Of a DNA stretch of 64,000 bases, positions 8,444-50,100 are shown in pieces (within the stretch, counting starts at the first letter, position 1; every line of letters begins with the position of its first letter). The position numbers and the translations under genes are program-made. The stretch is from contig CALUTL010000006.1 in assembly GCA_944323655.1 (NCBI GenBank), positions 19,950-83,949 on the forward strand, read 5' to 3'. The notes below the pieces were generated by a model. That model saw nothing but the letters and a program-made list of their open reading frames with translations. It was not told where the DNA came from and searched no databases. This DNA comes from Candidatus Gastranaerophilales bacterium. GTDB lineage: Bacteria; Cyanobacteriota; Vampirovibrionia; Gastranaerophilales; Gastranaerophilaceae.

Positions 8444-8446
8444 TTA

Positions 8447-8482
8447 TAAAAAAGAGTTTCAGGTTAATGAAACTCTTTTTTA
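8447..8482. terminator. bidirectional intrinsic terminator
   Basis: Stem AAGAGTTTC (8452-8460) / GAAACTCTT (8469-8477), flanked by AAAAA and TTTTT. It sits between the tRNA and the convergent hydrolase gene. Confidence 0.75.
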
Positions 8483-8505
8483 TTTTAATTTGTAAATCCA
8501 AATAT

Positions 8506-32725: not shown

Positions 32726-33061
32726 TTATCTCCAGTAAACTTTGAATTTTTCAATTTCTTCAAGAGTTTTGTGATAATCCCCCTTGAAACATATCGTTCT
32801 ATCGTCAATGTATAAATAAGACGGTAATTTTACGTTTGTCACATCTTTAAAAAACTTATCTAAATTGTTATTAATTAGCCATTTAGTTGCAAGCATCAAA
32901 TTTCTCGATGTAAAAAGATACAATTCAGCACTTTGAGATAACTTTTCTAAAAACTCATAAGCCCCGACCTTAATTTTAGGGATATAATTTTCATTGAATT
33001 TTTCTTTCCCGTACTCATTTAGAACGCCGTCTAAATCTATAAGTATCTTTTTAGTGAACAT
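32726..33061 (-). CDS. small HAD-like hydrolase (5'-nucleotidase-like)
   Basis: MFTKKILIDLDGVLNEY (DxDG motif). The start at 33061 is chosen; the 80-aa N-terminal extension in the track is low-complexity and overlaps the next gene's promoter region. Confidence 0.55.
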   Translation of the reverse strand: MFTKKILIDLDGVLNEYGKEKFNENYIPKIKVGAYEFLEKLSQSAELYLFTSRNLMLATKWLINNNLDKFFKDVTNVKLPSYLYIDDRTICFKGDYHKTLEEIEKFKVYWR

Positions 33062-33128
33062 AAATATTATCCTATTATTGCTAGTTATACTAGTTGTACA
33101 TAATGCTAGTATAACTAACAATTTAAAA

Positions 33129-33347
33129 ATGAACAAGCCATTTTTAGAAAAATTAGCCAAGAGGCTAAAATATTTAAGAGAAGAAAGAAATTTAACACAG
33201 GATGATCTTGGAGTAAATGGTGTATCAAGATCAATGATTAGTTTGCTTGAACTTGCCAAGACAGATGTTACTGTTACTAAGTTAAAAATTATAGCTGACA
33301 ATTTAGGTGTTGAAGTAAAAGATTTATTTGATTTTAAAGATCAATAA
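33129..33347 (+). CDS. XRE-family HTH protein (1 of 3 tandem paralogs)
   Basis: MNKPFLEKLAKRLKYLREERNLTQDDLGVNGVSRSMISLLE. The track ORF is trimmed to the Met at 33129. Confidence 0.75.
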   Translation: MNKPFLEKLAKRLKYLREERNLTQDDLGVNGVSRSMISLLELAKTDVTVTKLKIIADNLGVEVKDLFDFKDQ

Positions 33348-33349
33348 TT

Positions 33350-33562
33350 ATGGACAAGGTTTTATTACAAAAATTAGCAAATCGCATAAAAGAGTTGAGG
33401 AAATTACATAAGTACACTCAAGATGATTTAGCGGATTTAGCCCAAATTGCACGCTCTACTTTAGGGAATATTGAAACTGCTCAAAATGATGTAACCTTTT
33501 CCAAATTAAATAAAATAGCCAAAGCTTTTAATCTAACATTAGCTGAATTTTTAAATTTTTAA
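33350..33562 (+). CDS. XRE-family HTH protein (2 of 3)
   Basis: LLQKLANRIKELRKLHKYTQDDLADLAQIARSTLGNIE. Lies 2 nt after the previous stop. Confidence 0.8.
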   Translation: MDKVLLQKLANRIKELRKLHKYTQDDLADLAQIARSTLGNIETAQNDVTFSKLNKIAKAFNLTLAEFLNF

Positions 33563-33563
33563 A

Positions 33564-33773
33564 ATGAGACAAGATATAAGACAAATATTAGCAAATAATA
33601 TTAAAAATCTGCGAACACAGAAAAAATTAAGCAGAGAAGAATTATCTTTAATTTTAGGAGTTGATAATTCTTATGTTTCAAAACTCGAAAAAGGTAAAAT
33701 AAATATTACTTTAGATAAAATTGAAATGCTAGCCAATTATTTTGAAACAGAAGTATATTTATTATTAAAATAA
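33564..33773 (+). CDS. XRE-family HTH protein (3 of 3)
   Basis: ILANNIKNLRTQKKLSREELSLILGVDNSYVSKLE. Lies 1 nt after the previous stop. Confidence 0.8.
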   Translation: MRQDIRQILANNIKNLRTQKKLSREELSLILGVDNSYVSKLEKGKINITLDKIEMLANYFETEVYLLLK

Positions 33774-34147: not shown

Positions 34148-35254
34148 TTAATTAAATAACTTTGAACATTTTTCTTGAATGTCTAATGCAATATCTTTTG
34201 CGAATTTTTCTTTTAGTCCTATATTTTTTGCCACGGCTAGAATATTATCTAAAGTTGGATTTTTACCCTCACCATTAATCGTAGTTGCGTGTTCGCCATT
34301 AAATGAAAAACTATAAGTCAAATCATACGCAGGAGATAAATGCCATTCTTTTTTTGTATCATCAAAAAGAAAAGAAAAATTCTTTGAATGGTCATCTCTG
34401 TTATGTGCAAACACATTAAAGCACATTAACCTGAATAATTGTTCAATATCTTGATAATTTCTTGTTAACTCAAGCGTAAGTTTCATCAATGTATTGTAAT
34501 CAAGGTTAGGAAACCTATGACTTGTTTCTAACAGCCCGCTTGCGGATACCATATGAACTTTTTTACCATTTTTGCGGTCAAACCTTTTTATTCCAAAATA
34601 TCCTGAACAAACTTTAGATGGGAATAGCCTTGTTTCAGTCATATTTATTCCGCAATCTTTTGCACATAGGGAATATTGATATTCTTTTTCACCAATATTT
34701 TTAGAATCAGAGGATGATGGAAACTTAATAATCCAATCCTCGTTATCAATAGATGTCAAAATCTTTGGTCTTGCTCCACCTGATGACCCGCCTAATTGAA
34801 AAAGTTCATCCAAATTATCCGAATTTTGTGATTCTAATATTTTTGAACACTCTTGTGCAAGAATATCATAATCCGCAATGTTATTTTTAGATTCAAACCT
34901 ATGTTCAGGTTTATAAGTTAAAGCCCCCATACCACTTTCTTGAACAACAGCAAGTCTATTGAGGTTATCTATTTCATTAGGGTTAATTTTATTTTTCAAA
35001 AATAACCTGTCAACAAGCAATCTTCCCCAACCGTCAGGCAAACTGTCGTTAAAAACTCCAAATAAACCGCCAAAAGGGTCGTATTTTGGGATAAAAACTT
35101 TCTTGATAAGCGGCAAACTAAAAGGTGAAATGCTAAATCCATTATTTAACCAATCTGAGTCATATTCAAAAGCAGCAACTCTTTCAGGTGTTTTGGCAAG
35201 AGTTCCAACTAAAATATCGTTATAAAAAACTTTTAAATATTTATAGTTATCCAT
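34148..35254 (-). CDS. hipA: HipA-family Ser/Thr kinase toxin
   Basis: LPDGWGR, GGSSGGARPK and DDHSKNFSF are HipA N- and C-domain signatures. Overlaps hipB by 8 nt. Confidence 0.9.
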   Translation of the reverse strand: MDNYKYLKVFYNDILVGTLAKTPERVAAFEYDSDWLNNGFSISPFSLPLIKKVFIPKYDPFGGLFGVFNDSLPDGWGRLLVDRLFLKNKINPNEIDNLNRLAVVQESGMGALTYKPEHRFESKNNIADYDILAQECSKILESQNSDNLDELFQLGGSSGGARPKILTSIDNEDWIIKFPSSSDSKNIGEKEYQYSLCAKDCGINMTETRLFPSKVCSGYFGIKRFDRKNGKKVHMVSASGLLETSHRFPNLDYNTLMKLTLELTRNYQDIEQLFRLMCFNVFAHNRDDHSKNFSFLFDDTKKEWHLSPAYDLTYSFSFNGEHATTINGEGKNPTLDNILAVAKNIGLKEKFAKDIALDIQEKCSKLFN

Positions 35255-35525
35255 TTATAACCTCATCAATTGAGTTGTAGCTTTTTTGCAAAAATAAATT
35301 TTCTAAATCATGCTCTAGATTAAGAGCTATTAGGATTTTTATAAAAGAATTCAGAGAAATTTCATACTTGGATTCAAACCTTTTTATAGAACCGAGACTT
35401 ACACCTGATTTAGTTGCAAGCTGAGCTTGAGAAATCTTAAGCTTTTTCCTGTGCTGCTTAATTTTCCCAACCAGTTCTTTTGCTATATCATTAGGAGTCT
35501 TAGGATTAAATATAAAGTTACCCAT
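35247..35525 (-). CDS. hipB: HipB-like XRE-family antitoxin
   Basis: KIKQHRKKLKISQAQLATKSGVSLGSIKRFE HTH, immediately upstream of and overlapping hipA. Confidence 0.8.
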   Translation of the reverse strand: MGNFIFNPKTPNDIAKELVGKIKQHRKKLKISQAQLATKSGVSLGSIKRFESKYEISLNSFIKILIALNLEHDLENLFLQKSYNSIDEVING

Positions 35526-35771: not shown

Positions 35772-36311
35772 ATGAACATAGTACAACCTATAAAAAAGAT
35801 AGAAGACATCCAAAAGATTAAAAAATATCTTGCAAAAAAGCCAAGAGATGCACTGCTTTTTAGTTTCGGGATAAATACAGGACTTAGAATATCTGATATA
35901 TTATCGCTTGATATTGGGGATGTAAAAGGCAGAGATTATATTGAAATTAGGGAGAAAAAGACGAATAAGTATAAGAAATTTCCGCTTAATAGATTTTTGA
36001 AGGAGGAGATTAATTTATTTGTAGAGGGTTTGGCGAGTGAGCAACCGCTTTTTTATACACAAAAACATTGCAGGCTTGATAGAGCACAGGCGTATAGAAT
36101 TTTGAATAAGGCAGCACAAGCTGTTGGGGTGAAGGAAAGAATCGGAACACATACGCTAAGGAAGACATTCGGATATCATCATTATAAAAAATATAATGAT
36201 ATAGTACTCCTGCAAAAAATCTTTAACCACTCCTCTCCATCAGTAACACTCCGCTACATCGGCATTGAACAAGACACAATAGATGAAAGTTATATGAATT
36301 TTTATTTATAA
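35772..36311 (+). CDS. minimal (catalytic-domain-only, FimB/FimE-sized) tyrosine recombinase
   Basis: 179 aa with GLRISDILSL (Arg I), HTLRKTFGYH (H-x-x-R), NHSS (His) and LRYIG (Tyr nucleophile). No N-terminal core-binding domain. Confidence 0.85.
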   Translation: MNIVQPIKKIEDIQKIKKYLAKKPRDALLFSFGINTGLRISDILSLDIGDVKGRDYIEIREKKTNKYKKFPLNRFLKEEINLFVEGLASEQPLFYTQKHCRLDRAQAYRILNKAAQAVGVKERIGTHTLRKTFGYHHYKKYNDIVLLQKIFNHSSPSVTLRYIGIEQDTIDESYMNFYL

Positions 36312-36413
36312 AAAGTTAATAATTAATTTACAGATTAAAGTTGCTGATAGAACAAATAACACTATTTATTATGTTAATATTACTGTATGACAAAATATTT
36401 CTTTACAAAACTC

Positions 36414-36442
36414 TTGACATTAAAAGTTTTTTATGTTAATAT
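36414..36442 (+). promoter_or_regulatory. consensus-like sigma70 promoter for the R-M operon (TTGACA-17 nt-TAATAT)
   Basis: TTGACA at 36414-36419, a 17-nt spacer, and TAATAT at 36437-36442. Lies ~160 nt upstream of the first ORF at 36606. Confidence 0.55.
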
Positions 36443-36605
36443 ATATGTAGAACAAAAATTCCTATGAACATAATAAAGGGTTTGTTCGATAGGAATTCTT
36501 TACACTAATAGTTTAATATTAGCCTGACAACTATATTTTAAACTATTAAAGAAGAAAAATCAAGTGTAGAGTTTTGTGTAGTAACCCTTTAGAAAGGATA
36601 AAATC

Positions 36606-36815
36606 ATGTTACGTAGATATTACGTAAACAACTCTGCGCAGTCAAATGGCGACCATGAAGTTCATGAAGAACATTGCACGTTCTTGAAACTAGCTGTTGA
36701 TGTTAAATTTCTCGGTTGGTTTGAAAACGGCATTCAAGCTGTAGCATATGCAAAGAAGTTTTATTCACGTGCTGATGGCTGTTTTTACTGTTGCAAAGAA
36801 GCGCACAAGCGTTAA
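36606..36815 (+). CDS. small Cys/His-rich protein (putative zinc-binding), unknown function
   Basis: 69 aa with NGDHEVHEEHC...GCFYCCKEAH. SD AAAGGA upstream. First ORF of the R-M transcription unit. Confidence 0.6.
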   Translation: MLRRYYVNNSAQSNGDHEVHEEHCTFLKLAVDVKFLGWFENGIQAVAYAKKFYSRADGCFYCCKEAHKR

Positions 36816-36871: not shown

Positions 36872-37507
36872 ATGAAAAAATTTACATTAAATCAAATAGT
36901 AGAAATTCAAGCCGGACTTGTTTTATCGAGAACGGGTGCTAAGCAACTTGAATTAATAAAAAGAAATGTTGCAGAAAAAGTTTCAGACATTACAGTTCGA
37001 AAATATAAAGCAATTACTTTACGTTCAATAACAGATGTTGGAATTTTAGATTTGTCTCAATGTGATGATTTTGATAGCAAAGAAGAAATTTCTGATAGAT
37101 ATTTAACACATAATAATGATATTTTAGTAAGAATGTTTACACCTTTGAAATGCTGTTTAATTAATAGCGAGGAAGAAAATCTTGTTGTTCCATCGCAGTT
37201 TTGTATTTTAAAGTTAAAAGATTCTTTCAGAGATATTATTTTACCTGAGTATTTGTATTTGGTAATGCGAAATAAGGATTTTTCAAAGCAAGTACAAAAA
37301 TTAGAAGAAGGTTTTCAATTGCGATCGATAAAAACGTCTTCTATTGCTAAAATCAAAATAAATATTCCAGACATTGCAACGCAAGAAAAACTTATTAATG
37401 TTTCAAATTTAATAAGAAGAAAAGAAAAACTGATGTCAGAATTAATTATTCAAGAAAAACTATACAATGAAACTATTTTAGAAAAATTAATCAAAGGAGA
37501 AATATAA
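36872..37507 (+). CDS. hsdS: type I R-M specificity subunit, half-size (single target-recognition domain)
   Basis: 211 aa: one TRD-sized region followed by the conserved helical tail IPDIATQEKLINVSNLIRRKEKLMSELIIQEKL. Its stop shares a nucleotide with the hsdM ATG (TAATG). Confidence 0.7.
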   Translation: MKKFTLNQIVEIQAGLVLSRTGAKQLELIKRNVAEKVSDITVRKYKAITLRSITDVGILDLSQCDDFDSKEEISDRYLTHNNDILVRMFTPLKCCLINSEEENLVVPSQFCILKLKDSFRDIILPEYLYLVMRNKDFSKQVQKLEEGFQLRSIKTSSIAKIKINIPDIATQEKLINVSNLIRRKEKLMSELIIQEKLYNETILEKLIKGEI

Positions 37508-39072
37508 TGAAAACTACAAGAGCAGATATAGAAGCAGCGTTATGGAGGGGGGCTAATACTTTTAGGGGTATTATTGATGCCGCAAACTATAAAGATTATG
37601 TATTATCAATGCTATTTGTAAAATATTTGAGTGATACATTCAAAGAAAATGTAGAAAATTTAAAATCAAAATATCCTGATGAACAAAGATTTGAAAGAGC
37701 AAAATCAAGACTGCCATTTGCACTAAGTGAAGAGCAAACCTTTGATTACTTATATGAGAATAGGTTCAACTCTGAAATCGGTCAAAAAATAAATGCAGCT
37801 TTAAGAGCAATAGAAGACAATAATCCACAGTTACAAGGAGTTTTCAGAAGTGTAGATTTTAATAGTGAACCTAATTTAGGAAACCCAAAGCAAAAAGCTA
37901 CAACTTTAAGAAATTTATTGGAAGATTTTAAATCTCTTGATTTAAGGCCTTCAATGATTGAAGTTAAAGAAAATCAAGTAGCGTCTGACGTTCTTGGAGA
38001 TGCATTTGAATATATGATTGGTGAATTTGCAAGCCAAGCAGGCAAAAAGGCCGGCTCATTCTTTACTCCAATGATGGTCTCAGAACTTATGGCACAAATC
38101 GCAAAACCTAAACAAGGAGATAGTATTTATGACCCAACCTCAGGTTCTTGCTCATTACTTATAAGGGCTGCAAAATATGCAGGAGTTAAGCAAGTATCAA
38201 TTTATGGACAAGAGATGAATGGTTCTTCTTGGTCAATGGGCAAAATGAATATGTTTATTCACGATATTATGGATTCTAAAATAGCTTGGGGAGACACTTT
38301 AGCAAATCCTGCTCACCTTGATAGTGATGGAAATCTGATGAAGTTCAATGTGGTTGTTGCTAATATGCCATTTTCTCAAGATAAGTGGGCTGAAGGGTTT
38401 AACCCTGGAGGGGAGAGTGATGGTAAAGAAAAAAACAAAGATAAAAAGTTTAAAATGGAAGCAAAGTATGATCCTTACAATAGGTTTGATTGGGGTATAC
38501 CACCTTCAAGTAAAGGTGATTGGGCATTTTTGCTACACATGATAAACAGTTTACAACCTGATGGAAGAATGGTTGCAGTAGTTCCGCATGGTGTCTTATT
38601 TAGAGGAGCTTCAGAGGGTATTATAAGAAAAAGAGTTATAGAAGAAAATCTTTTGGATGCTGTAATTGGACTGCCGGAAAACTTATTTTTTGGAACTTCA
38701 ATCCCTGCTTGCTTATTGGTTATTAAGAAAAACAGATCCGACAAAGATGTATTATTTATTGACGCATCAGGTGAAGGCAGATATGTCAAAGATAAAACAC
38801 AAAACAAACTAACTCAAAAGAATATTGATGATATTTTAGATGTTTATAATAAACGAGAAACAGTAGATAAATTCTCTTATGTGGCAACTTTTGAAGAAAT
38901 TAAAGAAAATGAGTTTAATTTAAACATTCCTCGCTATGTTGACACATTTGAGGAAGAAGAAATTATAGATATTGCGCAAGTGCAAACAAATATCAAAAAT
39001 ATTAAATCTGAGCTTGAAGTAGTTGAAAAGGACTTGGCAGATGCCCTTAAAGAATTAGGGGTGGAGGTATAA
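37507..39072 (+). CDS. hsdM: type I R-M N6-adenine DNA methyltransferase subunit
   Basis: N-terminal HsdM_N-like LWRGANTFRG, the AdoMet motif IYDPTSGSCSLL, and the catalytic VVANMPF (NPPF variant). Confidence 0.93.
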   Translation: MKTTRADIEAALWRGANTFRGIIDAANYKDYVLSMLFVKYLSDTFKENVENLKSKYPDEQRFERAKSRLPFALSEEQTFDYLYENRFNSEIGQKINAALRAIEDNNPQLQGVFRSVDFNSEPNLGNPKQKATTLRNLLEDFKSLDLRPSMIEVKENQVASDVLGDAFEYMIGEFASQAGKKAGSFFTPMMVSELMAQIAKPKQGDSIYDPTSGSCSLLIRAAKYAGVKQVSIYGQEMNGSSWSMGKMNMFIHDIMDSKIAWGDTLANPAHLDSDGNLMKFNVVVANMPFSQDKWAEGFNPGGESDGKEKNKDKKFKMEAKYDPYNRFDWGIPPSSKGDWAFLLHMINSLQPDGRMVAVVPHGVLFRGASEGIIRKRVIEENLLDAVIGLPENLFFGTSIPACLLVIKKNRSDKDVLFIDASGEGRYVKDKTQNKLTQKNIDDILDVYNKRETVDKFSYVATFEEIKENEFNLNIPRYVDTFEEEEIIDIAQVQTNIKNIKSELEVVEKDLADALKELGVEV

Positions 39073-39074
39073 AT

Positions 39075-39500
39075 ATGATATCTATTGGAATTAGAATAAC
39101 AGCTAAAGAATTAAGATATGCCATTATAGACTTAAAAAAAAGAATAATGTTAAATAAAGAAGATCATTGTGTAAAATTTCCTAAAAATATTGATGATGCA
39201 GAAAAATTCCAGTGGCTATATAAAGAAATTGAAGAAATAGTAAAACAATATCCTATAAATAAAGTTGTAATTTGTGAAAATAATTATGGTCGAGATTCAA
39301 AAGCATTAAGACTGTCTAATCGACTTGATGCAATAGTTGTATTAGCTTTTGCAAACAATTGTATACCAACAACAATAAAATCTCTAAACTTAAAAGAAGA
39401 AGATATGTTGGTAACAGCAGAAAAACATGTTGGAAAGACAGATAAATATTGGAATAAAATGATTGCATCTTGTATTATTGTTGCCATAGGAGATAAATAA
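39075..39500 (+). CDS. hypothetical 141-aa protein nested in the R-M operon (possibly RNase H-like/DUF3010-like fold, a weak guess)
   Basis: GGAGG lies 8 nt upstream of ATG 39075, which is 2 nt after the hsdM stop. Its 3' end carries the SD for the kinase gene. MISIGIRITAKELRYAIIDL...INKVVICEN loosely recalls RuvC/DUF3010-type N-termini. Confidence 0.7.
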   Translation: MISIGIRITAKELRYAIIDLKKRIMLNKEDHCVKFPKNIDDAEKFQWLYKEIEEIVKQYPINKVVICENNYGRDSKALRLSNRLDAIVVLAFANNCIPTTIKSLNLKEEDMLVTAEKHVGKTDKYWNKMIASCIIVAIGDK

Positions 39501-40553
39501 TTGACATACAAAGTAACATATAAAATAAATGAAAAATATGAAATAAAAAAACTTTTGGGGCAAGGAAATTTTGGCCAAGTCTACCTTGTTCATAATAAGA
39601 TTTTAAATAAAGAAAGAGTAATAAAAATAGTACAGGTTATAGATGCAGATACTTTTCAGGAAGCTCAAATTGGAAATATTATTACACATAAAAATTTAGT
39701 AAAAATTCATAGTGCAGAATATAATCAAGATTTACAACATTTAATTATTGAAATGGATTATTGTGAGAAAGGTTCAATAGAAAGTAAATTAAATGCAAAC
39801 GGTTATTTGCCATTAAAAAAGGCTATTAAATATACAATTGAGTTATTAAGAGGATTAGAAGCATTACATGGAAATAGTATTTTTCATAATGATATTAAAC
39901 CTAAAAATATCCTTATAAGTAGTGATGATAGAGCGATGTTAACTGATTATGGAATTGCGATGATGTCATCTGATAAACAACCAATAAATCCACAAAAAGG
40001 ATTTTACAAATTACATTATGCTCCAGAGTCTTTCGAAACAGCTTGTATAAATATATCAACAGATATATATCAAGTTGGACTTACTTTATTCAGAATTATT
40101 AATGGCGTTGAGGTTTTGCCAACAAAATTTTATCAAATAGGTGAAGAATCATATTTTGAATTAGTAAAAAGTGGCAAATTAATTGCTAAAAACGATTATT
40201 TAGACTTTGTTCCAAGACAAATAAAAATGATTATTAACAAAGCGATATCTCCTGATATTAAGAAACGATATCAAACAGCAAGAGAGATGAGGCATTCTTT
40301 AGAACAATTAATTATATCTGGAGACTGGAATCTTGATTCGAATGGTATTTTGTATGGAGAGGATAATAGATTTAAATATACATTTGATATTGAAACCAAA
40401 CAAAATAAATATAATTTTAAAGCATATAAAATTAATAAAAAGTCTAATATAAAAACACAAATTCATAAATATGATAAAAAAAATATTGATATTAAATCTT
40501 TAAATGCGCATAAAAAGAATTTCATGCAAGATGTTGTTACAGGAAATATATAA
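39501..40553 (+). CDS. Hanks-type Ser/Thr protein kinase with unassigned ~80-aa Lys/Asn-rich C-terminal tail
   Basis: LGQGNFGQVYLV (Gly loop), RVIKIV (Lys), HNDIKPKNILI (catalytic loop, non-RD), LTDYGIA (DFG-like), YAPE (APE). The TTG start directly follows the orf141 stop, with AGGAG 8 nt upstream. No in-frame ATG lies upstream of the Gly loop. Confidence 0.88.
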   Translation: MTYKVTYKINEKYEIKKLLGQGNFGQVYLVHNKILNKERVIKIVQVIDADTFQEAQIGNIITHKNLVKIHSAEYNQDLQHLIIEMDYCEKGSIESKLNANGYLPLKKAIKYTIELLRGLEALHGNSIFHNDIKPKNILISSDDRAMLTDYGIAMMSSDKQPINPQKGFYKLHYAPESFETACINISTDIYQVGLTLFRIINGVEVLPTKFYQIGEESYFELVKSGKLIAKNDYLDFVPRQIKMIINKAISPDIKKRYQTAREMRHSLEQLIISGDWNLDSNGILYGEDNRFKYTFDIETKQNKYNFKAYKINKKSNIKTQIHKYDKKNIDIKSLNAHKKNFMQDVVTGNI

Positions 40554-41820
40554 AAGGGCTATAGAAACTGTGTTAAAAAACAAAAAAGAAGAAATTAAAA
40601 ATAGAATAGATTTAATTAATCGAGGGGAAGTTCCCGAGGGTTATAAATGTTGTTGGGGGTACATATACCCTGAATCTTGGAATATTAAAAGTTTAAAAGA
40701 TCTGTTCTACAAAGTTAAAACAAAAAATGCAGCAAATGAGAGTTTGCCTGTTTTAACCAACTCTGCAACACTTGGTGTAATTTTGCAAGATGAATATTTT
40801 GATAGAGAAATTGTAAATGATGAAAATACCAATAATTATTATATTGTTGAAAATGGAGATTTCATGTATAATCCACGGATTTCATCCAATGCACCGGCAG
40901 GACCAATTAACAGGAATACACTCGGACAAAAGGGTATAGCGTCACCTTTGTATACTATATTCAGAGCTAAAGATACTAAAAATATTGAATTTGTAGAAAA
41001 ATATTTTAAGTCAAATTATTGGCATAGATACATGAAAAGTGTTTCGAATCAAGGTGCACGACATGATCGACTAAACATAAATGATGAAGATTTTATGCGT
41101 ATGCCTATTCCTCAACCATCAAAACAAGAGCAGGAGAAGATTGCGAAGATTTTGAACTGCTGTGATAAGGTTATTGAACTTAAACAAAAATTGCTGGAAG
41201 AAAAAAATAAAGAATTTATTATTGCTATTAATAAATTAATTTATAAAAATAATCTGAAGTATCCAATAAAAAAAATTGAAGAAGTTTGTGAAATATTAGA
41301 TAATAAAAGAATTCCATTAAATGACGAAGAAAGATTAAATATAAAAGGATCAATACCTTATTATGGTGCAAATGGTGTTTTAGACTTTATCAATAAATAT
41401 ATATTTGATGAAGAGCTTGTTTTATTGGCTGAAGATGGTGGACATTTTGATGAATATTATAAGAGACCTATTGCACAATTTGTAAAAGGAAAATCTTGGA
41501 TAAATAATCATGCTCATATTTTGAAAGCAAAAAATAAAGAAAATTTATACTTGTATTTTTCACTAGTTCATAAAAATATTTTATCTATATTAAATGGAGC
41601 AGGTCGTGCAAAATTAAATCAAGCAGATTTAAAAAAAATAAAAATACCATATCCTGAAGACAAAAAACAGAATGAAATAGCTAGAATATTATCGATGAAA
41701 GAAAAGCACATTAAACTTTTAGAACAAGAACTTGATCAATATAAGCAGCTAAAAAAAGCCCTTTCACAACTGCTTTTGACAGGCATTGTAAGAATAGTGG
41801 AGGTAGATTGTGAAAACTGA
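40504..41820 (+). CDS. hsdS: type I R-M specificity subunit, full-size (two TRDs)
   Basis: Two TRD-sized regions separated by the central conserved helix PQPSKQEQEKIAKILNCCDKVIELKQKLLEEK. The C-terminal helix reads KKQNEIARILSMKEKHIKLLEQELDQYKQLKKAL. The start is uncertain (ATG 40504 or 40531); either overlaps the kinase gene's 3' end. Confidence 0.88.
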   Translation: MRIKRISCKMLLQEIYKRAIETVLKNKKEEIKNRIDLINRGEVPEGYKCCWGYIYPESWNIKSLKDLFYKVKTKNAANESLPVLTNSATLGVILQDEYFDREIVNDENTNNYYIVENGDFMYNPRISSNAPAGPINRNTLGQKGIASPLYTIFRAKDTKNIEFVEKYFKSNYWHRYMKSVSNQGARHDRLNINDEDFMRMPIPQPSKQEQEKIAKILNCCDKVIELKQKLLEEKNKEFIIAINKLIYKNNLKYPIKKIEEVCEILDNKRIPLNDEERLNIKGSIPYYGANGVLDFINKYIFDEELVLLAEDGGHFDEYYKRPIAQFVKGKSWINNHAHILKAKNKENLYLYFSLVHKNILSILNGAGRAKLNQADLKKIKIPYPEDKKQNEIARILSMKEKHIKLLEQELDQYKQLKKALSQLLLTGIVRIVEVDCEN

Positions 41821-42760
41821 TGTTTATTTTGCAAAAAAAGACGGGATGTTATTGATTGCTTATGAAAACCATAAGCAACAAAATGTTTTTTTGCAGGTTG
41901 ATTATGCAGATTTTGCCCCTCAAATACGAGCACAACTTATATGTGACAAAAATTATAATATTGAAAAAATTATCACTAATGCTTATGAATATCCGATTAT
42001 AAAAAAAGAAAATATGGAAATCGGAGTTAAATATAAACATATTTGGAAGCCTTTAATGCAAAATAATATAGAAAAAGAGCTAGATTTTTCTGTACAAGAA
42101 GCATATAGAGCCAAAAGAGATTTAGGAATACTTATTCAAAAACTGCAAGAAATTTTGTTATTTATTGAACCATCTAATGAAGGATTAAAAGCATATAGTC
42201 ATAAGGCAAGAGAACTATTGTTTTTAGCCTGTTCAGATCTTGAATGCAGTTTAAAAAAATATTGTTTTGGAAAAAATGACAGAATGAAAGATTATGTTAA
42301 ATTAATTGATTATATAGATTTAACAAAATATAAATTATCTCTTGTCGGGTATTCAAATCCATATAAATGTTGTCCTTTTGAAAATTGGAATAAAAAAGAG
42401 CCGTCAAAATCAATTCCCTGGTATTATGCATACAACCAAATTAAACATAATATTGATAAGAACTTTCATATGGCAACTCTTGAAAACTGTATTAATGCAA
42501 TAGCTGCAAATATTATTTTATTTGCTGTCAGGTATTCAGTACGGTATATATATGGAAAAGACGATGTTTGTTCTAATTTAATAAAAAGTTCTTTGGATTA
42601 TAGAATTGAAAATAGTATGGATTTTTATATCCCAATTTATGAAGGCGAAAGAAGTTATTCCGGAGCATTTACGATGCCATACAAATTTCATAACGGACAA
42701 GTTGTTGAAAATAGCTATGATATAGGAAATCTTCTTCCTTTTGTAGAAAAAGAATTGTAA
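41810..42760 (+). CDS. hypothetical 316-aa protein nested between hsdS and hsdR
   Basis: GTG 41810 is preceded by GGAGG (41799-41803) and lies 11 nt inside hsdS. The ORF ends 17 nt before hsdR. No Walker motif seen. The segment WYYAYNQIKHNIDKNF is noted, but no family was recognised. Confidence 0.72.
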   Translation: MKTDVYFAKKDGMLLIAYENHKQQNVFLQVDYADFAPQIRAQLICDKNYNIEKIITNAYEYPIIKKENMEIGVKYKHIWKPLMQNNIEKELDFSVQEAYRAKRDLGILIQKLQEILLFIEPSNEGLKAYSHKARELLFLACSDLECSLKKYCFGKNDRMKDYVKLIDYIDLTKYKLSLVGYSNPYKCCPFENWNKKEPSKSIPWYYAYNQIKHNIDKNFHMATLENCINAIAANIILFAVRYSVRYIYGKDDVCSNLIKSSLDYRIENSMDFYIPIYEGERSYSGAFTMPYKFHNGQVVENSYDIGNLLPFVEKEL

Positions 42761-42777: not shown

Positions 42778-45700
42778 ATGACATTAAATCATTACCAATA
42801 TAACGAAAGACCTGAAAGCCAAGAACCTGCAATCGAATTGCTTGAAAAATTGGGCTGGAAATATTTATCACCCACCGACGCAGAAAAACAACGTGGGAAT
42901 TTATATAATGTAATTTTAAAAGACGATTTAATGAATTTTTTAAAAGAGCAAAGATATGATTACAAAGGTGAAAAATTCCAATTTTCTTCAAGCAATATTG
43001 CTCATGCTATTTCTGATATTGATATTCCTTTGCAGTCAGGTTTGATGAAGACTTCAAAAGAAATATATGATCTTTTGATTTATGGAAAAAGCTACGAAGA
43101 AGATTTGTATGATGGCGGAAAATCCTCTTTTGATTTAAAATTTATTGATTGGAAACATCCTGAAAAGAATATTTTAAGAGTTACAGAGGAGTTTTCTGTT
43201 CAAAAGTTGGACCGCTCCAAAAGGCGTCCTGATATTGTTTTAACAGTTAATGGAATTCCTCTAGTTGTAATCGAATGCAAGAAGTCTTCAGTTAGTATTG
43301 ATGAAGGTATAAGACAAAATATTAAAAATTGGAAAGCTGATGAAATTCCACATTTATTTAAATTTATTCAACTGGTAGTTGCAATGAATTCACATAGTTT
43401 TAAATATGGAACCTGTGGAACAAAATTTGAGTTTTTTGTACCTTGGAAGGAAAAAGATACTGATTGGATGAATAAACAGTTAGAAGAATTAATTCAAGGA
43501 AGGCTTCCAAAAGAACAAGATAAAAATATAATTGCAATGCTTTCACCTGAAAGATTGTTTGAAATAATACAATATTATACGTTATACGATAATAATGTAA
43601 AAAAAGTTGCCAGATATCAACAATTTTTTGGAATTCGAAAAGCTATTAACCGTATTACACTAAAAGATGGCAAAGGAACAAGAAATGGTGTGATTTGGCA
43701 TACTCAAGGCAGTGGAAAATCATTAACCATGGTTATGCTTGTAAAAAAAATTATTGCAGTTTCTCAAGAAGAAAATTCTGATATAAAAAATCCTAGGTTT
43801 GTTCTTGTAAATGACAGAATTAATTTAGACAAACAGTTAAGAGATAACTTCTCTAATACCCAGATGAATCCTGCAAGAGCAAAAACAGGCAAAGGTTTAA
43901 TTGAATTATTAAAAGATGAGGGTGAAACTCTTATTACTACTGTTATTCATAAATTTGAAAAAGCAGCAAAACAAAAGACTAAATTAAATGACAACAACAT
44001 ATTTATTTTAATAGATGAATGCCATAGAACACAGAGTGGCAATTTTCATAATTTCATGACGGATGTTTTACCAAATGCTGTAAAAATTGGATTTACCGGT
44101 ACTCCATTATTAAAAACAGAAAAACAAAGTACGTATGACAGGATTGGTCCGTTAATAGATAGTTATCCGATTAATAAGGCTGAAGAAGATAAGGTTATTG
44201 TTCCTCTTGTTTATGAAGGTCGTAAAATTCCGCAAAAAACTACAAGCGATGCAATTGATCAATATCTGGAACAAAGTCTAATTGGATTAACCGAGCAACA
44301 ACAGGAAGATTTAAAACGTAAATATAGTAGATTTACAAGTATTGCTCCAACAATGCCTAGGTTGACTTGTCTTGCATATGCAATAAAACAACATTATGAA
44401 AGATACATTAAACCAAATGGATTTAAAGCTATGATTGCAGAATCCTCAAGAGTAAGTGCTATTGAATTACATAAACTGCTAAAAAGCCTTGGTTTAAAAA
44501 CAGCTGTAGTAATTTCCCCAGAAGCAAGAGCTGAAGGTGAAGAATTAAACAATAGTGATAAAGATAAAATTGCGCAATTTTTTAAAACCGAAATTGAGCC
44601 TTTATATGGAATGAATTATGAAGCTTATGAAGATTGGGCAAAAAATAGCTTTACCGATGGTGAAGATATTGATATTTTAATAGTAAAAGATAAATTATTA
44701 ACTGGATTTGATGCTCCTATTGCACAAGTTTTGTATGTAGATAAATCAATGAAAACGCATAATTTATTACAAGCTATTGCTAGAGTAAATAGAGTTTTTC
44801 CTGGCAAAAAGAATGGGCGAATTGTTGATTTTTATGGTATTTTTGAGAATTTAACTTCTGCTATGGACTTGTATTCAGATAAAGAATCCGGAATGAATCA
44901 GTTTGATAAAGACGATATTAAAAAAACTATATATGGTCCGGAAGATGTAAAAAAAGAACTGTATAACAACTATGATCAAGTTATGCAATTTATTGCAGGA
45001 CATAACACTGATGACACAGAAGAAATACAATTATTATTTAAAGATGAAGATATAAGAAAAGATTTTTATGAAAAACTATTGAATTTTTCAAACTCACTTG
45101 ATACGGCAATAAGTAATTATAATGTATATGAAGGAATTGGTATTGATGAAATTAAAAGATTGCAAAAAGATTATGTCTATTTGCAAAAATTAAGAAGTGG
45201 CATAAAACTTCGATATGGTGAGACTGTTGATTTTTCTGTTTATGAATCTTCCATTAAAAATTTACTAAATCAATTCGTTTCAGCCGAAGCTGATGAAATT
45301 GTAATAAATCCGCTTTATCTATCAGATAAAGCAACTATGGAAAAAGAATTAGAAAAGCTACCCTCTTTAAGGGCTAAAGCAGAAGCTATGGTATATAATA
45401 TAGCAACAAGGCTCTCTGAGACAAGAGAAAAAGACCCGATTTTTTATAAAACATTTAGACAAAGATTAGACGAAACTATTGCAGAGTATAATAAAACAAG
45501 AAATGAAGAAGCTTATTTAGCACAAATGAAAGATCTTGAAAATGATTACGAAAAGGGATTTGTTGGGAATAAATATCCAACGGTTATTTCTGATGATGAT
45601 GACGCTAAAGGTTTTTATGGAAATATAAAATTAGAATTAGAAAAAAATATCAAAATCTCAGAAAATGATGATATAGATAATCAACTGGGTATTTTGGCAA

Positions 45701-45894
45701 TATTAATAAAAAATACATTTAGAAATTCCCAAAAACCAGGGTGGCAATATAATACAGTACTTATAAATAACATAAAACAAGAAATTGAAGATGCTATTTT
45801 TGATTTTGTAGATAATAATGGTATTACATTGGATATGGACCAACTAGATAAAATAGAAGAAGATATTTTAATGACTGCAAAGAGTATATTTTGA
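42778..45894 (+). CDS. hsdR: type I restriction enzyme R subunit (SF2 helicase-nuclease)
   Basis: 1038 aa with a PD-(D/E)xK-like N-terminus (PDIVLTVNGIPLVVIECKK), Walker A TQGSGKSLTM, DEAH-like LIDECHRTQ, and TGTPL. Confidence 0.95.
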   Translation: MTLNHYQYNERPESQEPAIELLEKLGWKYLSPTDAEKQRGNLYNVILKDDLMNFLKEQRYDYKGEKFQFSSSNIAHAISDIDIPLQSGLMKTSKEIYDLLIYGKSYEEDLYDGGKSSFDLKFIDWKHPEKNILRVTEEFSVQKLDRSKRRPDIVLTVNGIPLVVIECKKSSVSIDEGIRQNIKNWKADEIPHLFKFIQLVVAMNSHSFKYGTCGTKFEFFVPWKEKDTDWMNKQLEELIQGRLPKEQDKNIIAMLSPERLFEIIQYYTLYDNNVKKVARYQQFFGIRKAINRITLKDGKGTRNGVIWHTQGSGKSLTMVMLVKKIIAVSQEENSDIKNPRFVLVNDRINLDKQLRDNFSNTQMNPARAKTGKGLIELLKDEGETLITTVIHKFEKAAKQKTKLNDNNIFILIDECHRTQSGNFHNFMTDVLPNAVKIGFTGTPLLKTEKQSTYDRIGPLIDSYPINKAEEDKVIVPLVYEGRKIPQKTTSDAIDQYLEQSLIGLTEQQQEDLKRKYSRFTSIAPTMPRLTCLAYAIKQHYERYIKPNGFKAMIAESSRVSAIELHKLLKSLGLKTAVVISPEARAEGEELNNSDKDKIAQFFKTEIEPLYGMNYEAYEDWAKNSFTDGEDIDILIVKDKLLTGFDAPIAQVLYVDKSMKTHNLLQAIARVNRVFPGKKNGRIVDFYGIFENLTSAMDLYSDKESGMNQFDKDDIKKTIYGPEDVKKELYNNYDQVMQFIAGHNTDDTEEIQLLFKDEDIRKDFYEKLLNFSNSLDTAISNYNVYEGIGIDEIKRLQKDYVYLQKLRSGIKLRYGETVDFSVYESSIKNLLNQFVSAEADEIVINPLYLSDKATMEKELEKLPSLRAKAEAMVYNIATRLSETREKDPIFYKTFRQRLDETIAEYNKTRNEEAYLAQMKDLENDYEKGFVGNKYPTVISDDDDAKGFYGNIKLELEKNIKISENDDIDNQLGILAILIKNTFRNSQKPGWQYNTVLINNIKQEIEDAIFDFVDNNGITLDMDQLDKIEEDILMTAKSIF

Positions 45895-46598
45895 TGAAAA
45901 AATATTATTTATTAAAAGATAAAAAAGGGTTCTTAATTGATATAGAACGTAAGAATATTAAAAACTATAATATAAGGATTTTGCCTGACAATAACATAAA
46001 GTGTTCAGTCCCAATGCAGACTACAGATGAAGAGATTTCCAAGTTTTTAAAATCTAAAGAATGCTGGATCTATAAACACAATGTCAGACAAGAAAAACTT
46101 CAACCATTACAAAATAAAGATATTCTGAAAAATGGTGGTTTTGTTAAAATTTTAGGACATTTTTATAATGTAAAAATCGAATCATCACAAAGTTTTAAAA
46201 TCATTTTAAATGATAGGAATATCATTTTTTATACAAATGAAGTTGATAATATTGATAAAAAATATCGAAATTTTGCAAGAAAAAATATGCAAGAATATTT
46301 TGAAAAGGTAATAGAAAAATTTTATCCAATAATAAGAAAATATAATAAACCTAAACCAATATTAAAAATTAGAAAAATGAAAGCCTGCTGGGGAACTAGT
46401 AATCCTGAACAAAATGCAATTACTTTAAATGAATATTTATATTCAGCATCTCCTTATTGTATTGAATATGTTGTGCTGCATGAATTAACTCATTTTTTAT
46501 ACACAAATCATGATAAACAATTTTTTGATTTTATAAGTATTCATATGCCAGATTGGCAAGAACGAAAAAACAAATTAAATACAGATTTTAATATATAA
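45894..46598 (+). CDS. YgjP/DUF45-like (M48/WLM-like) zinc metallopeptidase
   Basis: VVLHELTHFLYTNHDKQFFDFISIHMPDWQERKNKL (HExxH plus the typical downstream pattern). The ATG overlaps the hsdR stop (TGATG). Confidence 0.82.
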   Translation: MKKYYLLKDKKGFLIDIERKNIKNYNIRILPDNNIKCSVPMQTTDEEISKFLKSKECWIYKHNVRQEKLQPLQNKDILKNGGFVKILGHFYNVKIESSQSFKIILNDRNIIFYTNEVDNIDKKYRNFARKNMQEYFEKVIEKFYPIIRKYNKPKPILKIRKMKACWGTSNPEQNAITLNEYLYSASPYCIEYVVLHELTHFLYTNHDKQFFDFISIHMPDWQERKNKLNTDFNI

Positions 46599-47473: not shown

Positions 47474-49189
47474 TTAATCTTTATATAAAATGTGAAAAAA
47501 TTTAATAATATCTTGATTTATTTCATTACTTTTAAAACTTTTGGCGATTTTATTATTTGAAAAAGAAATCTTATATTTATGTTGGATTTCCGCTTTTATT
47601 GATTTTAAGATTTCTTTTCCTGAACAAATTTTTATTTTTTCATCTAATGAATTCCAATGGCTTTCTACAATTTCAATTGCTTTTTTTGTTATTGCGGTAT
47701 ATCCCAAACTTTTATCTTCTTCTTGTATTTTTTGTCCAAATTGACAAATTATGTTATCTTTATTTTTATTTAATATACTTTCAATCAATTTAATAATTTC
47801 ATCAAGAGAAATTTCTTTTTCTTGCCTAATAATTCTATATATTACATTTGGATTTATAAGATAATTTTCAATTTCTTTGCTATCCCAAATGATTAAATTG
47901 ATCCCATGTTCATTAGCTTCTTGAGTCATTTTTATATTATTTTCTTCTTTAGAATAATCCTTATCTAAAATACAATATGTTTGTATAGTATTACCAGAAC
48001 TTATTTTTGTTATTTCGTTTGCGCCAAGAACTTTTTTCCATTGAGATTTGCCACCAATTTTTATAATTGGAATTTCATTAAAATTTTCATAATGTAAAAT
48101 ATTTGCAAAGTAAGACAAAATTTTATCGTCATCACCTTCTACATATAAGCATTTTTTACAATGAGAAAATTTAATAAATTCTAAATTCGAAGAATACCCT
48201 ATATCATCAATAATATTTTGAACTGTAGGGTTATCATTAGCATACTTTGATCTATATTTATTTTTTTGTACAATTAATACATTTTTAGGATCAGTTTTTG
48301 ATATAAACTCGAAAGAATGACTAGATAATATAATTTGCTTATTTGTATTTAAAAGAATCTCATATAATTTGTTTTGTAAATCTGCATGCAGATATACATC
48401 TGGTTCATCAATAATCAATGTGTTTGCTGTTTGTTCAGTAAATATAAACCATAGAATTTGCATCCACATTTGTAATCCATGCCCCATAGCTCCAATTTCA
48501 GCTATAAAATCATTTTCTCGCAATAACAATGTTAATATTCCATTATTGTTGTCAACATCAGAGATTGTTAAACCTGGCCAACTTTGTTGTACGATAGTTT
48601 TATATTTTGGTAAAAGATTCTGATTATTATATAACTTATTTCTAAAATGTAATGACGTTGTAGATAACATTTCGGCTCTTTTAATTGTTTCATCTTGAAG
48701 GACTTTCTCTTCTAAGTTTAAAGGGCCTATTTGAGGTAAAGTTGCTACTTCAGGGAAATTATATCGCATTGCATTACTTTTACTTTTTATTATTTCATTA
48801 TTAGAGTTTCTTAACAATGCAAATATGGTTTCATTTTCTCCGTAAAATATTTCAATCGAAGATTTATCTGTAAATGTAATTTTGGCATATGGTATACCAT
48901 CGTATCTATGAGGAATTGAATTATATTGTCTGATAATTCTTTTTATTTCTGGAGAAATTCCTTTTATTCGAAATCGACTTTCTTCTGTATGTAAATTACT
49001 AATCCAAGAGGGGACATCTTTAAAAGTTAAATATTTATACTTTTTTGTTATTAAAGCAACAATCCTTAATATCTCAATTATGGTAGATTTTCCTGCATTA
49101 TTTTTCCCTACCATTAAAGTTAAATCTTTAAATTTTAATGTATGTTTTTTAAATCCTCTATAATTTTCTATGTAAATTGAATCTAACAT
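47474..49189 (-). CDS. ABC/AAA-type ATPase fused to a Toprim/DUF4435-like nuclease domain (OLD-family or fused PARIS AriA-AriB-like)
   Basis: Walker A GKNNAGKSTIIE, Walker B LIIDEPDVYLH, a signature-like HGLQMW, then the C-terminal CLYVEGDDDK, YCILDKD and EIENYLINP, typical of Toprim/DUF4435 modules. Confidence 0.8.
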   Translation of the reverse strand: MLDSIYIENYRGFKKHTLKFKDLTLMVGKNNAGKSTIIEILRIVALITKKYKYLTFKDVPSWISNLHTEESRFRIKGISPEIKRIIRQYNSIPHRYDGIPYAKITFTDKSSIEIFYGENETIFALLRNSNNEIIKSKSNAMRYNFPEVATLPQIGPLNLEEKVLQDETIKRAEMLSTTSLHFRNKLYNNQNLLPKYKTIVQQSWPGLTISDVDNNNGILTLLLRENDFIAEIGAMGHGLQMWMQILWFIFTEQTANTLIIDEPDVYLHADLQNKLYEILLNTNKQIILSSHSFEFISKTDPKNVLIVQKNKYRSKYANDNPTVQNIIDDIGYSSNLEFIKFSHCKKCLYVEGDDDKILSYFANILHYENFNEIPIIKIGGKSQWKKVLGANEITKISSGNTIQTYCILDKDYSKEENNIKMTQEANEHGINLIIWDSKEIENYLINPNVIYRIIRQEKEISLDEIIKLIESILNKNKDNIICQFGQKIQEEDKSLGYTAITKKAIEIVESHWNSLDEKIKICSGKEILKSIKAEIQHKYKISFSNNKIAKSFKSNEINQDIIKFFHILYKD

Positions 49190-49206
49190 ATCAAACCTGA
49201 TTTTTA

Positions 49207-50100
49207 TTATTCTTCACTAAAGAAATCTTCATCAATCTTTTTGATTTCGATTTTAGTTTTGACTTGGACGCCTAAGTTATGCTTAATCATTAATTCAGTC
49301 AATTCTTCACCATCAACTAAGCGTATGACTTTTCCCTGTATGGATGCTGCTTTCTTTTTAGCTCTTTCATCAAAAAAGCTGGTTGTTATAAATACTCCCT
49401 TTCTTACCGGAGAACAGCCTAGAGCTCCTGCGAAATTTTGCATTTCTTTTTCATTGACTTTATTGTCTGAGTATCTTTTAGCTTGCAGGTATATTTTTTC
49501 TAATCCCAATTCATCTTCATCAATTATGCCATCTACTCCGCCATCATGACTCATTTTAGTCATAGATCCGACACCATAATTCATTTTTTCCATAAGTTGA
49601 AGAACGATTTGTTCAAATCTTACAGGGTCTATTTGTTTTAATCTTGTTAGCAATTCTGTTTGTAGATTTTCTTTATACATATCTTGAGCATGTGCTAACA
49701 TTTCGTCTGGAGTATCAGTTTTACTTTCTTGTATGTTTTTATCAGAAGTTTTTTCATCTTTATTAGGTTTTACAAATTCTAAAAATTCATTATATTGCTT
49801 TAGATAGTTTAGTATATCTTTAGGTTTATCTTGAAGGGCTTTTTCGCCTCTTTCATTAATAACAAAATAGGCTCTTCTAGGTGAATCTATCAATTTAGCA
49901 GCTTTTAAATATGTTCTAGCCCAACCTACTCTACCTGCGAATTTATTACTACCACTAGAAATTTTTTCCTCCAATTCTTCATTTGTTAATTTTAGTTTCT
50001 TTGCTAAAATATCAACAATTTCCGTAATTCGATGTTCCTTTTTATCAGATAAAACTTCTAAAACTGGTATCATTAATTCATCATATTTAGGTATTGCCAT
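49207..50100 (-). CDS. mrr: Mrr-family type IV restriction endonuclease
   Basis: The Mrr_N winged helix reads IPKYDELMIPVLEVLSD...RVGWARTYLKAAKLI. The catalytic core reads FEQIVLQLMEKM...DGGVDGII...IYLQAKRY. Confidence 0.85.
   Translation of the reverse strand: MAIPKYDELMIPVLEVLSDKKEHRITEIVDILAKKLKLTNEELEEKISSGSNKFAGRVGWARTYLKAAKLIDSPRRAYFVINERGEKALQDKPKDILNYLKQYNEFLEFVKPNKDEKTSDKNIQESKTDTPDEMLAHAQDMYKENLQTELLTRLKQIDPVRFEQIVLQLMEKMNYGVGSMTKMSHDGGVDGIIDEDELGLEKIYLQAKRYSDNKVNEKEMQNFAGALGCSPVRKGVFITTSFFDERAKKKAASIQGKVIRLVDGEELTELMIKHNLGVQVKTKIEIKKIDEDFFSEE

Follow-up and report, generated by a model that had tools for sequence, protein, structure and literature searches.

Introduction

Among the described defences against phages that are based on protein kinases, 933W Stk and the staphylococcal Stk2 are reportedly eukaryote-like kinases that abort the infection once a phage protein activates them (Depardieu 2016, cited in PMC9519451); both are single genes, found either in the immunity region of a prophage or on a chromosomal island. 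A different principle is represented by PrrC, an anticodon nuclease that is kept silent by a restriction-modification (R-M) complex. PD-T4-6, a Ser/Thr kinase defence gene of Escherichia coli UMB0949 (Vassallo et al. 2022, PMC9519451), consists of a single 436-aa gene that was cloned together with ~180 bp of upstream DNA and hence without a partner (supplement, PMC9519451), and Mad6 of the MADS system provides a further precedent of kinase-based defence (bioRxiv 10.1101/2023.03.30.534895). Embedding within another system has been described as a predictor of defence function, and type I R-M, DISARM and BREX are the systems that most often host such embedded cargo (bioRxiv 10.1101/2024.01.29.577857). 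Here, we present an analysis of a 64,000-nt stretch of a Candidatus Gastranaerophilales genome (the window; coordinates are window positions unless a contig is named), in which a small gene, orf141, and the gene of a Hanks-type Ser/Thr kinase are placed between hsdM and hsdS of a type I R-M operon. We found that the two genes are one unit, and we read this unit, with a probability of roughly 60% and on the basis of sequence comparison, as a self-contained cassette for phage defence of the abortive-infection or toxin-antitoxin-like kind that would be carried as exchangeable cargo in slots of restriction-type operons.

PD-T4-6 resembles the locus in that a Hanks-type kinase serves as phage-defence gene, but the kinase studied here has 350 aa and, in all 27 intact clusters of its family, a partner with a predicted RuvC-like fold is encoded directly upstream. 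The likeness to 933W-type stk amounts to 32% identity over the kinase domain (tblastn); the C-terminal domain is not common to both, because the similarity stops at residue 278-281, and 933W Stk and Stk2 lack a RuvC-fold partner. With Mad6 of MADS and PglW of BREX type 2, the locus has in common that a Hanks-type kinase is encoded alongside a methyltransferase and a specificity subunit in the same operon. Mad6 (612 aa) and PglW (~1400 aa), however, are multidomain proteins of large size that are indispensable and invariable components of their systems, whereas the pair appears as optional cargo. The arrangement corresponds to that of PrrC and DarTG2, which are independent defence modules nested between hsd genes and co-expressed with them (bioRxiv 10.1101/2024.01.29.577857; PMC12255303), although the proteins of the pair are unrelated to PrrC and to DarTG, an ADP-ribosylating toxin-antitoxin pair, and in contrast to PrrC we saw no sign here of a dependence on the Hsd proteins. 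The orf141 protein is predicted to share its fold with the RuvC resolvase and with the C-terminal domain of TEFM, a RuvC-fold pseudo-nuclease; unlike RuvC, it is encoded with a kinase and not with ruvAB, and it has Arg/Lys (Cys in the window protein) at the positions of Asp7/Glu66. The gene layout fits that of a type II toxin-antitoxin pair with a kinase toxin, the small upstream gene being joined to the kinase gene at -11 to +4 nt.

orf141 and the kinase gene are one unit

The gene order and the ribosome-binding sites (RBSs) proposed in an earlier reading of the bare DNA (the sequence-only reading) agree with the open reading frame (ORF) listing and with the sequence. orf141, preceded by a GGAGG motif, follows the hsdM stop codon (TAA at 39070-39072), and the TTG start codon of the kinase gene at 39501 follows the orf141 TAA with a gap of zero nt, its AGGAG motif lying inside the 3′ end of orf141. 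This TTG is supported as the true start because the homologues begin at the aligned position.

A search with a cropped alignment of the C-lobe and tail of the kinase yielded 36 specific metagenome loci of the family. Profiles of both families were searched against all fetched loci, clusters were formed at ≤90% identity, and the neighbourhoods of ~31 loci were inspected. A partner gene was located directly upstream of each intact family kinase for which upstream DNA was available (27/27 clusters), and the distance from the partner stop to the kinase start was between -11 and +4 nt in 26 of these, with overlaps of 4 nt and 1 nt being the commonest; the single cluster off this tight junction has a frameshifted kinase. 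The cases without partner are two loci with 5′-truncated kinase remnants. Moreover, the pairwise identities among the partners and among the kinases are correlated with r = 0.92, a value that none of 2000 permutations reached. As a negative control, we used a scan with the whole-kinase alignment, which listed 80 loci, two of the true family and 78 with ordinary Hanks kinases; beside the latter, the partner gene was found in 0 of 78 loci. Among 72,556 plasmids, the partner occurred only in three records, each with a full-length family kinase. Thus, orf141 and the kinase gene are one unit that is translationally coupled, always co-occurring and co-diverging, and because this pair was met again, equally tightly joined, in ~30 unrelated loci, the arrangement is not a product of chance.

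A third gene travelling with the pair was sought in an all-against-all comparison of the neighbours, and none was found. A distant branch keeps the pair as well (L011, 8893-10388; L130, 208-1720; L013, L014 and L016), with scores of 27-35 bits for the partner and of 190-245 bits for the kinase. Kinases of intermediate score (175-197 bits), for instance of Paraclostridium ghonii, were also seen, and these are without partner.

The sequence-only reading had further described an overlap between the 3′ end of the kinase gene and hsdS. This overlap, of 50 nt, holds for the longest hsdS ORF only (ATG 40504) and may be a product of choosing that ORF. In the comparison with sibling strains, hsdS is similar from 40579 onward only, for which reason the true start may be GTG 40570, 16 nt past the kinase stop, and with this start the overlap would disappear. 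ATG 40531 and TTG 40534 are the other start candidates.

Occurrence as cargo in restriction-type operons

Three contigs of sibling strains (L093-L095) match the window with 87-97% DNA identity (94-97% up to position 39059) before position 39060 and again from position 41726 (blastn), and they share with it shortS, HsdM (at least 90% protein identity), orf316, HsdR and YgjP. Within the variable stretch in between, only two conserved islands of hsdS (40579-40647 and 41126-41210) align, and the slot between hsdM and hsdS is occupied by a gene encoding a 557-aa DUF6119 protein (PF19614), which replaces the pair. Because only the conserved parts of hsdS match inside the variable stretch, the exchanged cargo corresponds to 39060-40578, to which the usual replacement of the target recognition domains (TRDs) of hsdS is added. 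The DUF6119 gene of the siblings had no match in PADLOC and, as a slot occupant without such a match, is itself a candidate for an unlisted embedded defence cargo.

A similar picture emerged from the wider survey, in which 14 of the 25 judgeable contexts were found to lie inside multigene restriction-type operons, while two more adjoin defence genes. Type I operons carrying the pair number ten, including two partial cases. In one of them (L001), the pair is located between hsdM and hsdS and adjoins a PDC-S72 gene. The position between hsdS and hsdR was observed in L002 (beside PDC-S54), in L003 (beside Shedu SduA), in L118 and on two plasmids, pMpar-1 of Methylocystis parvus OBBP and pHR1a of Novosphingobium resinovorum; in L102, which is cut at its 5′ end, the pair directly precedes hsdR. 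The partial cases consist of a truncated kinase remnant adjoining hsdS (L096) and of a pair ~1.9 kb upstream of hsdR (L100). Further hosts are a DISARM class 1 operon, with the pair between the methylase gene and DrmA (the DrmC match reaches 228 bits, the cut-off being 133), a type III R-M operon, with the pair between mod and res and adjoining McrBC, and methyltransferase-plus-specificity (MTase+S) operons, in which the pair follows MAD2/MAD5-like methylase and specificity genes. In one context the pair stands beside two GmrSD genes and in another beside Gao_Iet and an MmeI-type R-M enzyme. Cargo genes that share host operons with the pair include SduA, PDC-S72, PDC-S54 and PDC-S50, all of them known or candidate defence genes. 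RefSeq labels the two genes of the two cultured examples as 'hypothetical protein' and 'serine/threonine-protein kinase'. In Methylocystis parvus OBBP the pair is WP_016919168.1 plus WP_016919169.1, and a further pair is WP_211151894.1 plus WP_211151893.1.

Since the slot varies (M/S or S/R), the host systems differ, solitary copies exist and the siblings carry DUF6119 instead, the comparison fits an exchangeable cargo that borrows the expression of the operon and is not a fixed R-M component. The homologues of the two genes are thus linked to each other and often to defence loci, and to this extent the suggestion in the sequence-only reading of an R-M-coupled defence module or regulator has held. 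Its narrower form, a specific coupling to this particular R-M system by phosphorylation of Hsd subunits or control of restriction, finds no support in the same four observations.

Predicted folds and active sites

A word-based homologue search with orf141 returned only three close relatives, and it was an exhaustive profile search that gave the family, with 94 representatives, nearly all of 140-160 aa. The AlphaFold2 (AF2) model of orf141, built with 72 of the 94 family members as alignment, reached a predicted local distance difference test (pLDDT) score of 96.4. The twelve best Foldseek matches of this model in the Protein Data Bank (PDB) were all RuvC resolvases (template-modelling score TMq up to 0.83), including 7xhj, 4ld0 and 1hjr, and RuvC of Deinococcus, Thermus and E. 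coli scored TMq 0.75-0.83 at a sequence identity of ~12-18%; TEFM and YqgF/RuvX were also among the matches. The sequence-only reading had missed this fold. At the sequence level, orf141 had no match in Pfam, PADLOC or the PDB sequences, and a PDB profile search returned no RuvC; faint RuvC signals came from PHROG 159 (5e-4) and from NCBIfam RuvC, which scored 22.3 bits where 163 is the cut-off.

We further compared the family with the catalytic tetrad of RuvC (Asp7, Glu66, Asp/His138 and Asp141). hhalign placed the 'LGIR' of the family against the 'LGID' of RuvC (R7/D7) and 'IK' against 'IE' (K67/E66). Among 72 family members, the residue at the Asp7 position is Arg in 65, Lys in four, Asn in two and Cys in one, hence acidic in none, and position 67, corresponding to Glu66, is occupied by Lys in 67. 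By this low-probability alignment to a RuvC reference sequence entered by hand, the acidic tetrad is not kept in orf141. Glu is found at position 70 in 66 of the 72 members and Asp at position 132 in 59, whereas the window protein has Arg7, Cys67, Asn70 and Ser132. A conserved face of the protein comprises Arg7, Arg14, Asn27 and Trp47. Because the RuvC fold is kept but the catalytic residues are replaced, orf141 is probably a pseudo-nuclease that retains the RuvC scaffold, as judged from the alignment and the model.

The kinase belongs to a family of ~100 clusters, whose proteins measure 350-366 aa and can be aligned over their full length. All catalytic motifs noted in the sequence-only reading are present, namely GQGNFGQVY, VIKI with Lys42, HNDIKPKN, DYG (the equivalent of the DFG motif) and APE, and K42, D131, K133, N136 and D149 are invariant across 48 family members. 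The catalytic loop reads HND, which makes it a kinase of the non-RD type. With its catalytic apparatus complete, the kinase is predicted to be active. The AF2 model (pLDDT 90.8, predicted template-modelling score 0.90) contains a family-specific C-terminal domain of short strands and a terminal helix (Table 1), which is conserved throughout the family. The earlier remark that this tail matches nothing recognised was borne out: neither a PDB profile search nor Pfam scans of 21 tails gave a relative, and in a Foldseek search with the whole model the matches aligned with the kinase domain only, the C-terminal domain being covered by none.

Database models of described systems

The best match of the kinase in a defence database is the PD-T4-6 model PDLC04042 of PADLOC (9.8e-42), and ~20 further PD-T4-6 models match it among the best 25 of 34 PADLOC matches; the mad6 model (4.2e-41) and PglW (9.4e-17) match as well. 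Most of the PD-T4-6 matches end near kinase residues 270-283, a few reach residues 316-342, and none covers the C-terminal end of the model. As the same models also match ordinary Hanks kinases, such as housekeeping kinases of the PknB type (PMC11514479), the match is generic and non-discriminating. Current tools would label the locus 'type I R-M with embedded PD-T4-6'.

The NCBIfam MAD6 equivalog scored 139.6 bits against a cut-off of 460, covering the kinase core only, and PglW scored 61 bits against a cut-off of 990. Mad7 and Mad8 are mandatory in the detection model of the MADS authors (bioRxiv 10.1101/2023.03.30.534895), and no gene for either was found in the window operon, which otherwise encodes HsdM, HsdS, HsdR, YgjP, shortS and orf316; BREX genes were likewise not found in the window region. 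No match to PrrC or RloC was obtained for either protein in PADLOC, Pfam or NCBIfam, and none of the PADLOC phage-defence candidate (PDC) models, which include those obtained from genes embedded in type I operons (bioRxiv 10.1101/2024.01.29.577857), matched orf141, which has no PADLOC match at all, or the kinase, in both cases among the best 25 of 34 PADLOC matches of the kinase. We also considered CapK/CapS, a kinase-substrate pair that regulates immune operons (PMC13373217), and rejected it, since CapK is a kinase of the anti-sigma type and CapS is a repressor with a STAS domain. A system composed of a RuvC-like protein and a Ser/Thr kinase was found neither in PADLOC, NCBIfam, Pfam or PHROGs nor in the literature searched, in agreement with the sequence-only reading, which knew of no such system.

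Probable defence cassette and alternative explanations

The reading of the pair as a defence cassette is well supported by comparative genomics. In such a cassette, the pseudo-RuvC, probably a dimer like RuvC, would bind the kinase and would either keep it inactive or serve it as a sensor, perhaps through recognition of DNA that becomes branched or broken in the course of phage replication or after restriction. Upon infection, the kinase would be released or activated and would phosphorylate host or phage proteins, whereupon phage growth would stop. The cassette would be expressed from the promoter of the host operon and would work without the Hsd proteins. The controlling role of the partner and the effector role of the kinase are suggested by the gene layout together with the known kinase defences (PD-T4-6, Stk2 and 933W Stk). 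It is also conceivable, if unlikely, that the pseudo-RuvC is a sensor of DNA structures (Holliday junctions, forks or restriction-made ends) accumulating in phage-infected cells and that it uses a basic, non-cutting site, derived from the former metal-binding site, to switch on the bound Hanks kinase. If true, this would be a bacterial immune pathway leading from aberrant DNA to a kinase, with a logic like that of the eukaryotic DNA-damage checkpoint kinases, and the sensor-kinase would form a second line in restriction operons that fires during restriction or after its failure. Several points weigh against the defence cassette or against parts of it. The assignment of effector and sensor or antitoxin roles to the two proteins is a guess. 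About 8 of the 25 judgeable contexts have no recognisable defence neighbour, as in L004 (Zoogloeaceae), with the pair between LysR and MerR genes, and in L111, with the pair after AcrB/OEP genes. The embedding in restriction-type operons could mean a functional link to DNA restriction. The residue mapping between orf141 and RuvC combines the fold match with an hhalign alignment of 24.5% probability and a RuvC reference sequence entered by hand, and relatives of orf141, most of which keep Glu70 and Asp132, may have a non-canonical catalytic site.

A functional link to restriction is the core of the main rival, which we consider rather unlikely: the pair would be an accessory or regulator of restriction-type systems, and phosphorylation by its kinase, be it of Hsd, Res or Drm subunits or of a host factor, would tune restriction, for instance by alleviation after DNA damage or as a back-up when restriction is blocked, with the pseudo-RuvC sensing DNA ends or branched DNA from the translocating nuclease. 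This would be consistent with every multigene host (type I, type III, DISARM and MTase+S) being a system that restricts or modifies DNA, with the single operon type (shortS-M-S-R-YgjP) of the ten independent type I hosts and with the translational coupling of the pair into the operon. Kinases are moreover integral to MADS (bioRxiv 10.1101/2023.03.30.534895) and to BREX type 2 (PglW), and CapK/CapS offers a precedent for regulation (PMC13373217), though with a different kinase fold. However, the slot is not constant in position, the host systems work by different mechanisms, copies exist without restriction genes within 8 kb (L004-L006), and the neighbour comparison gave no further gene that co-varies with the pair. 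The sibling strains, in which the same R-M operon carries DUF6119, show that the R-M system does not need the pair, and embedded cargo is in any case hosted most often by type I R-M, DISARM and BREX (bioRxiv 10.1101/2024.01.29.577857). Two further rivals are minor. The first, a mere toxin-antitoxin (addiction) module with the kinase as toxin and the upstream protein as antitoxin, which would stabilise a plasmid, an island or the operon without any role in defence, appears improbable to us. Kinase toxins such as HipA are known, the layout, in which a small gene precedes and overlaps the gene of a larger enzyme, is typical, no intact kinase occurs without partner, and copies are found on plasmids, beside integrases or mobilisation genes and, isolated, in housekeeping surroundings. 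Yet the partner, predicted to be globular, well folded and RuvC-like and having conserved basic residues where the active site was, does not resemble a typical antitoxin, labile or DNA-binding with a helix-turn-helix (HTH), and the strong bias to restriction-operon slots, which is common to proven defence genes, is not expected of an addiction module; as many toxin-antitoxin pairs act in defence, this explanation overlaps with the preferred one. Very improbable is an active, non-canonical nuclease effector, in which orf141 would cleave DNA or RNA upon infection and the kinase would be the regulator or sensor that switches it on. Nucleases are the commonest kind of effector in defence systems, and both the RuvC fold (TM ~0.8) and the prevalent Glu70 and Asp132 near the former active site argue in this direction; against it stand the 0/72 acidic residues at the position of the first catalytic Asp, the Lys at the Glu66 position in 67/72, the loss of even Glu70 (Asn) and Asp132 (Ser) in the window protein and the NCBIfam RuvC score of 22 bits against the cut-off of 163.

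Host operon and surrounding genes

The host is a complete type I R-M operon, in which HsdM, HsdS and HsdR are encoded together (Pfam, PADLOC). The positions of all features are compiled in Table 1.

Table 1 Features of the pair, its host operon and the equivalent sibling genes. Positions refer to the window except in the last row.
Feature	Position	Strand	Evidence and remarks
orf141 RBS, GGAGG	39063..39067	+	Sequence; within hsdM 3′ end; 7 nt before ATG 39075
orf141, small RuvC-fold partner protein (predicted)	39075..39500	+	ATG 39075; TAA 39498-39500
Kinase RBS, AGGAG	39488..39492	+	Sequence; within orf141 3′ end; 8 nt before TTG 39501
Hanks-type Ser/Thr kinase, 350 aa, TTG start	39501..40553	+	Pfam Pkinase 7.8e-37 over residues 13-265
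Kinase catalytic codons	Lys42 39624-39626; Asp131 39891-39893; Asp149 39945-39947	+	Sequence
Family-specific C-terminal domain, kinase residues 275-350	40323..40550	+	Six short strands and terminal helix in the model; pLDDT ~97
Exchangeable cargo segment	39060..40578		Last 4 hsdM codons, orf141 RBS, orf141, kinase and ~25 nt more; blastn with L093-L095
shortS, half-size HsdS-like gene, 211 aa, just upstream of hsdM	36872..37507	+	PADLOC Specificity_I 2e-14; weak Pfam Methylase_S match
hsdM, type I methyltransferase of the host operon	37507..39072	+	Pfam N6_Mtase 2.6e-102, HsdM_N 2.2e-24; PADLOC MTase_I 3.5e-135
hsdS, two-TRD specificity subunit	40504..41820	+	Pfam Methylase_S 4e-32 in two stretches; PADLOC Specificity_I 7.5e-66
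orf316, embedded gene between hsdS and hsdR, outside the pair	41810..42760	+	PHROG 19461 at 1.5e-36
hsdR, type I restriction subunit of the host operon	42778..45894	+	Pfam HSDR_N, SWI2_SNF2, T1R_D3-like; PADLOC REase_I 1.2e-150
YgjP/SprT-like zinc metallopeptidase, last gene of host operon type	45891..46598	+	Pfam YgjP-like 1.4e-43; overlaps hsdR stop
DUF6119 gene in siblings	L093 3293-4966; L094 4275-5948; L095 2792-4465		Equivalent to window 39060-40578

A counterpart of shortS (190-211 aa) precedes hsdM in L001, L002, L003, L118, L132 and L133, and a YgjP-like gene follows hsdR in all type I host operons for which the hsdR 3′ flank is available. The type I operons hosting the pair, where their ends are available, accordingly have a common and unusual frame, with shortS before hsdM and a YgjP/SprT-like gene abutting or overlapping the hsdR stop. 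In L093, hsdR (7188-10252) is split into ORFs of 137 aa and 836 aa, which may reflect a pseudogene or an assembly error. orf316 gave no match in Pfam, PADLOC and NCBIfam searches; a homologue occupies the same slot between hsdS and hsdR in L001, and orf316 may be a second embedded gene. Its cluster at 90% comprises 211 members, some of just 261 aa.

Upstream of the operon, a tyrosine recombinase of 179 aa without N-terminal domain is encoded at 35772-36311, and a homologue of it lies directly upstream of the pair in L120 (6083-6685). A phase-variable hsdS shufflon driven by this recombinase was considered and rejected, as neither direct nor inverted repeats of any significance were found to connect shortS, hsdS or the cassette borders. 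Two direct repeats of 31 nt, 62 nt apart (36365-36457), overlap the best promoter-like site (36414-36442), and downstream of them a Cys/His-rich ORF of 69 aa (36606-36815), conserved in the sibling strains, opens the operon; repeats and ORF may constitute an operator and a small regulator. Scans for promoters and terminators were of little help in DNA so rich in AT: 61 promoter-like sites were found where 68.6 were expected, and on the + strand no terminator-like site was found before 45560. The G+C content is ~26-36% across the 33-50 kb part of the window, and base composition shows no anomaly at the cassette.

Just upstream of the R-M operon lie three small Xre-type HTH genes in tandem (32994-33773) and, on the minus strand, a HipB-HipA pair (34148-35525). 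After the operon, within 47474-50100 on the minus strand, follow genes for an AriA/OLD/GajA-like ABC ATPase of 571 aa (PADLOC AriAB 8.8e-24) and for a methyl-directed restriction enzyme of type IV with 297 aa (1.8e-69). With HipBA, the AriA/OLD-like ATPase and the type IV enzyme flanking the operon, we regard the region as a defence island.

Conclusions

We regard the pair as a probable new two-gene kinase defence cassette carried as embedded cargo. It is present in cultured bacteria, on plasmid pMpar-1 of Methylocystis parvus OBBP and on plasmid pHR1a of Novosphingobium resinovorum HR1a. Should the pair prove to protect against phage, the few kinase-based defences of bacteria would be joined by a defined kinase system of two components, the fold of the partner would suggest DNA structures as a testable trigger, and annotation pipelines would be shown to hide such systems under the generic PD-T4-6 label. 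The comparison with the sibling strains provides a clean natural case of cassette exchange at the hsdM-hsdS junction, and such exchange helps to explain how restriction operons gather further defence genes.

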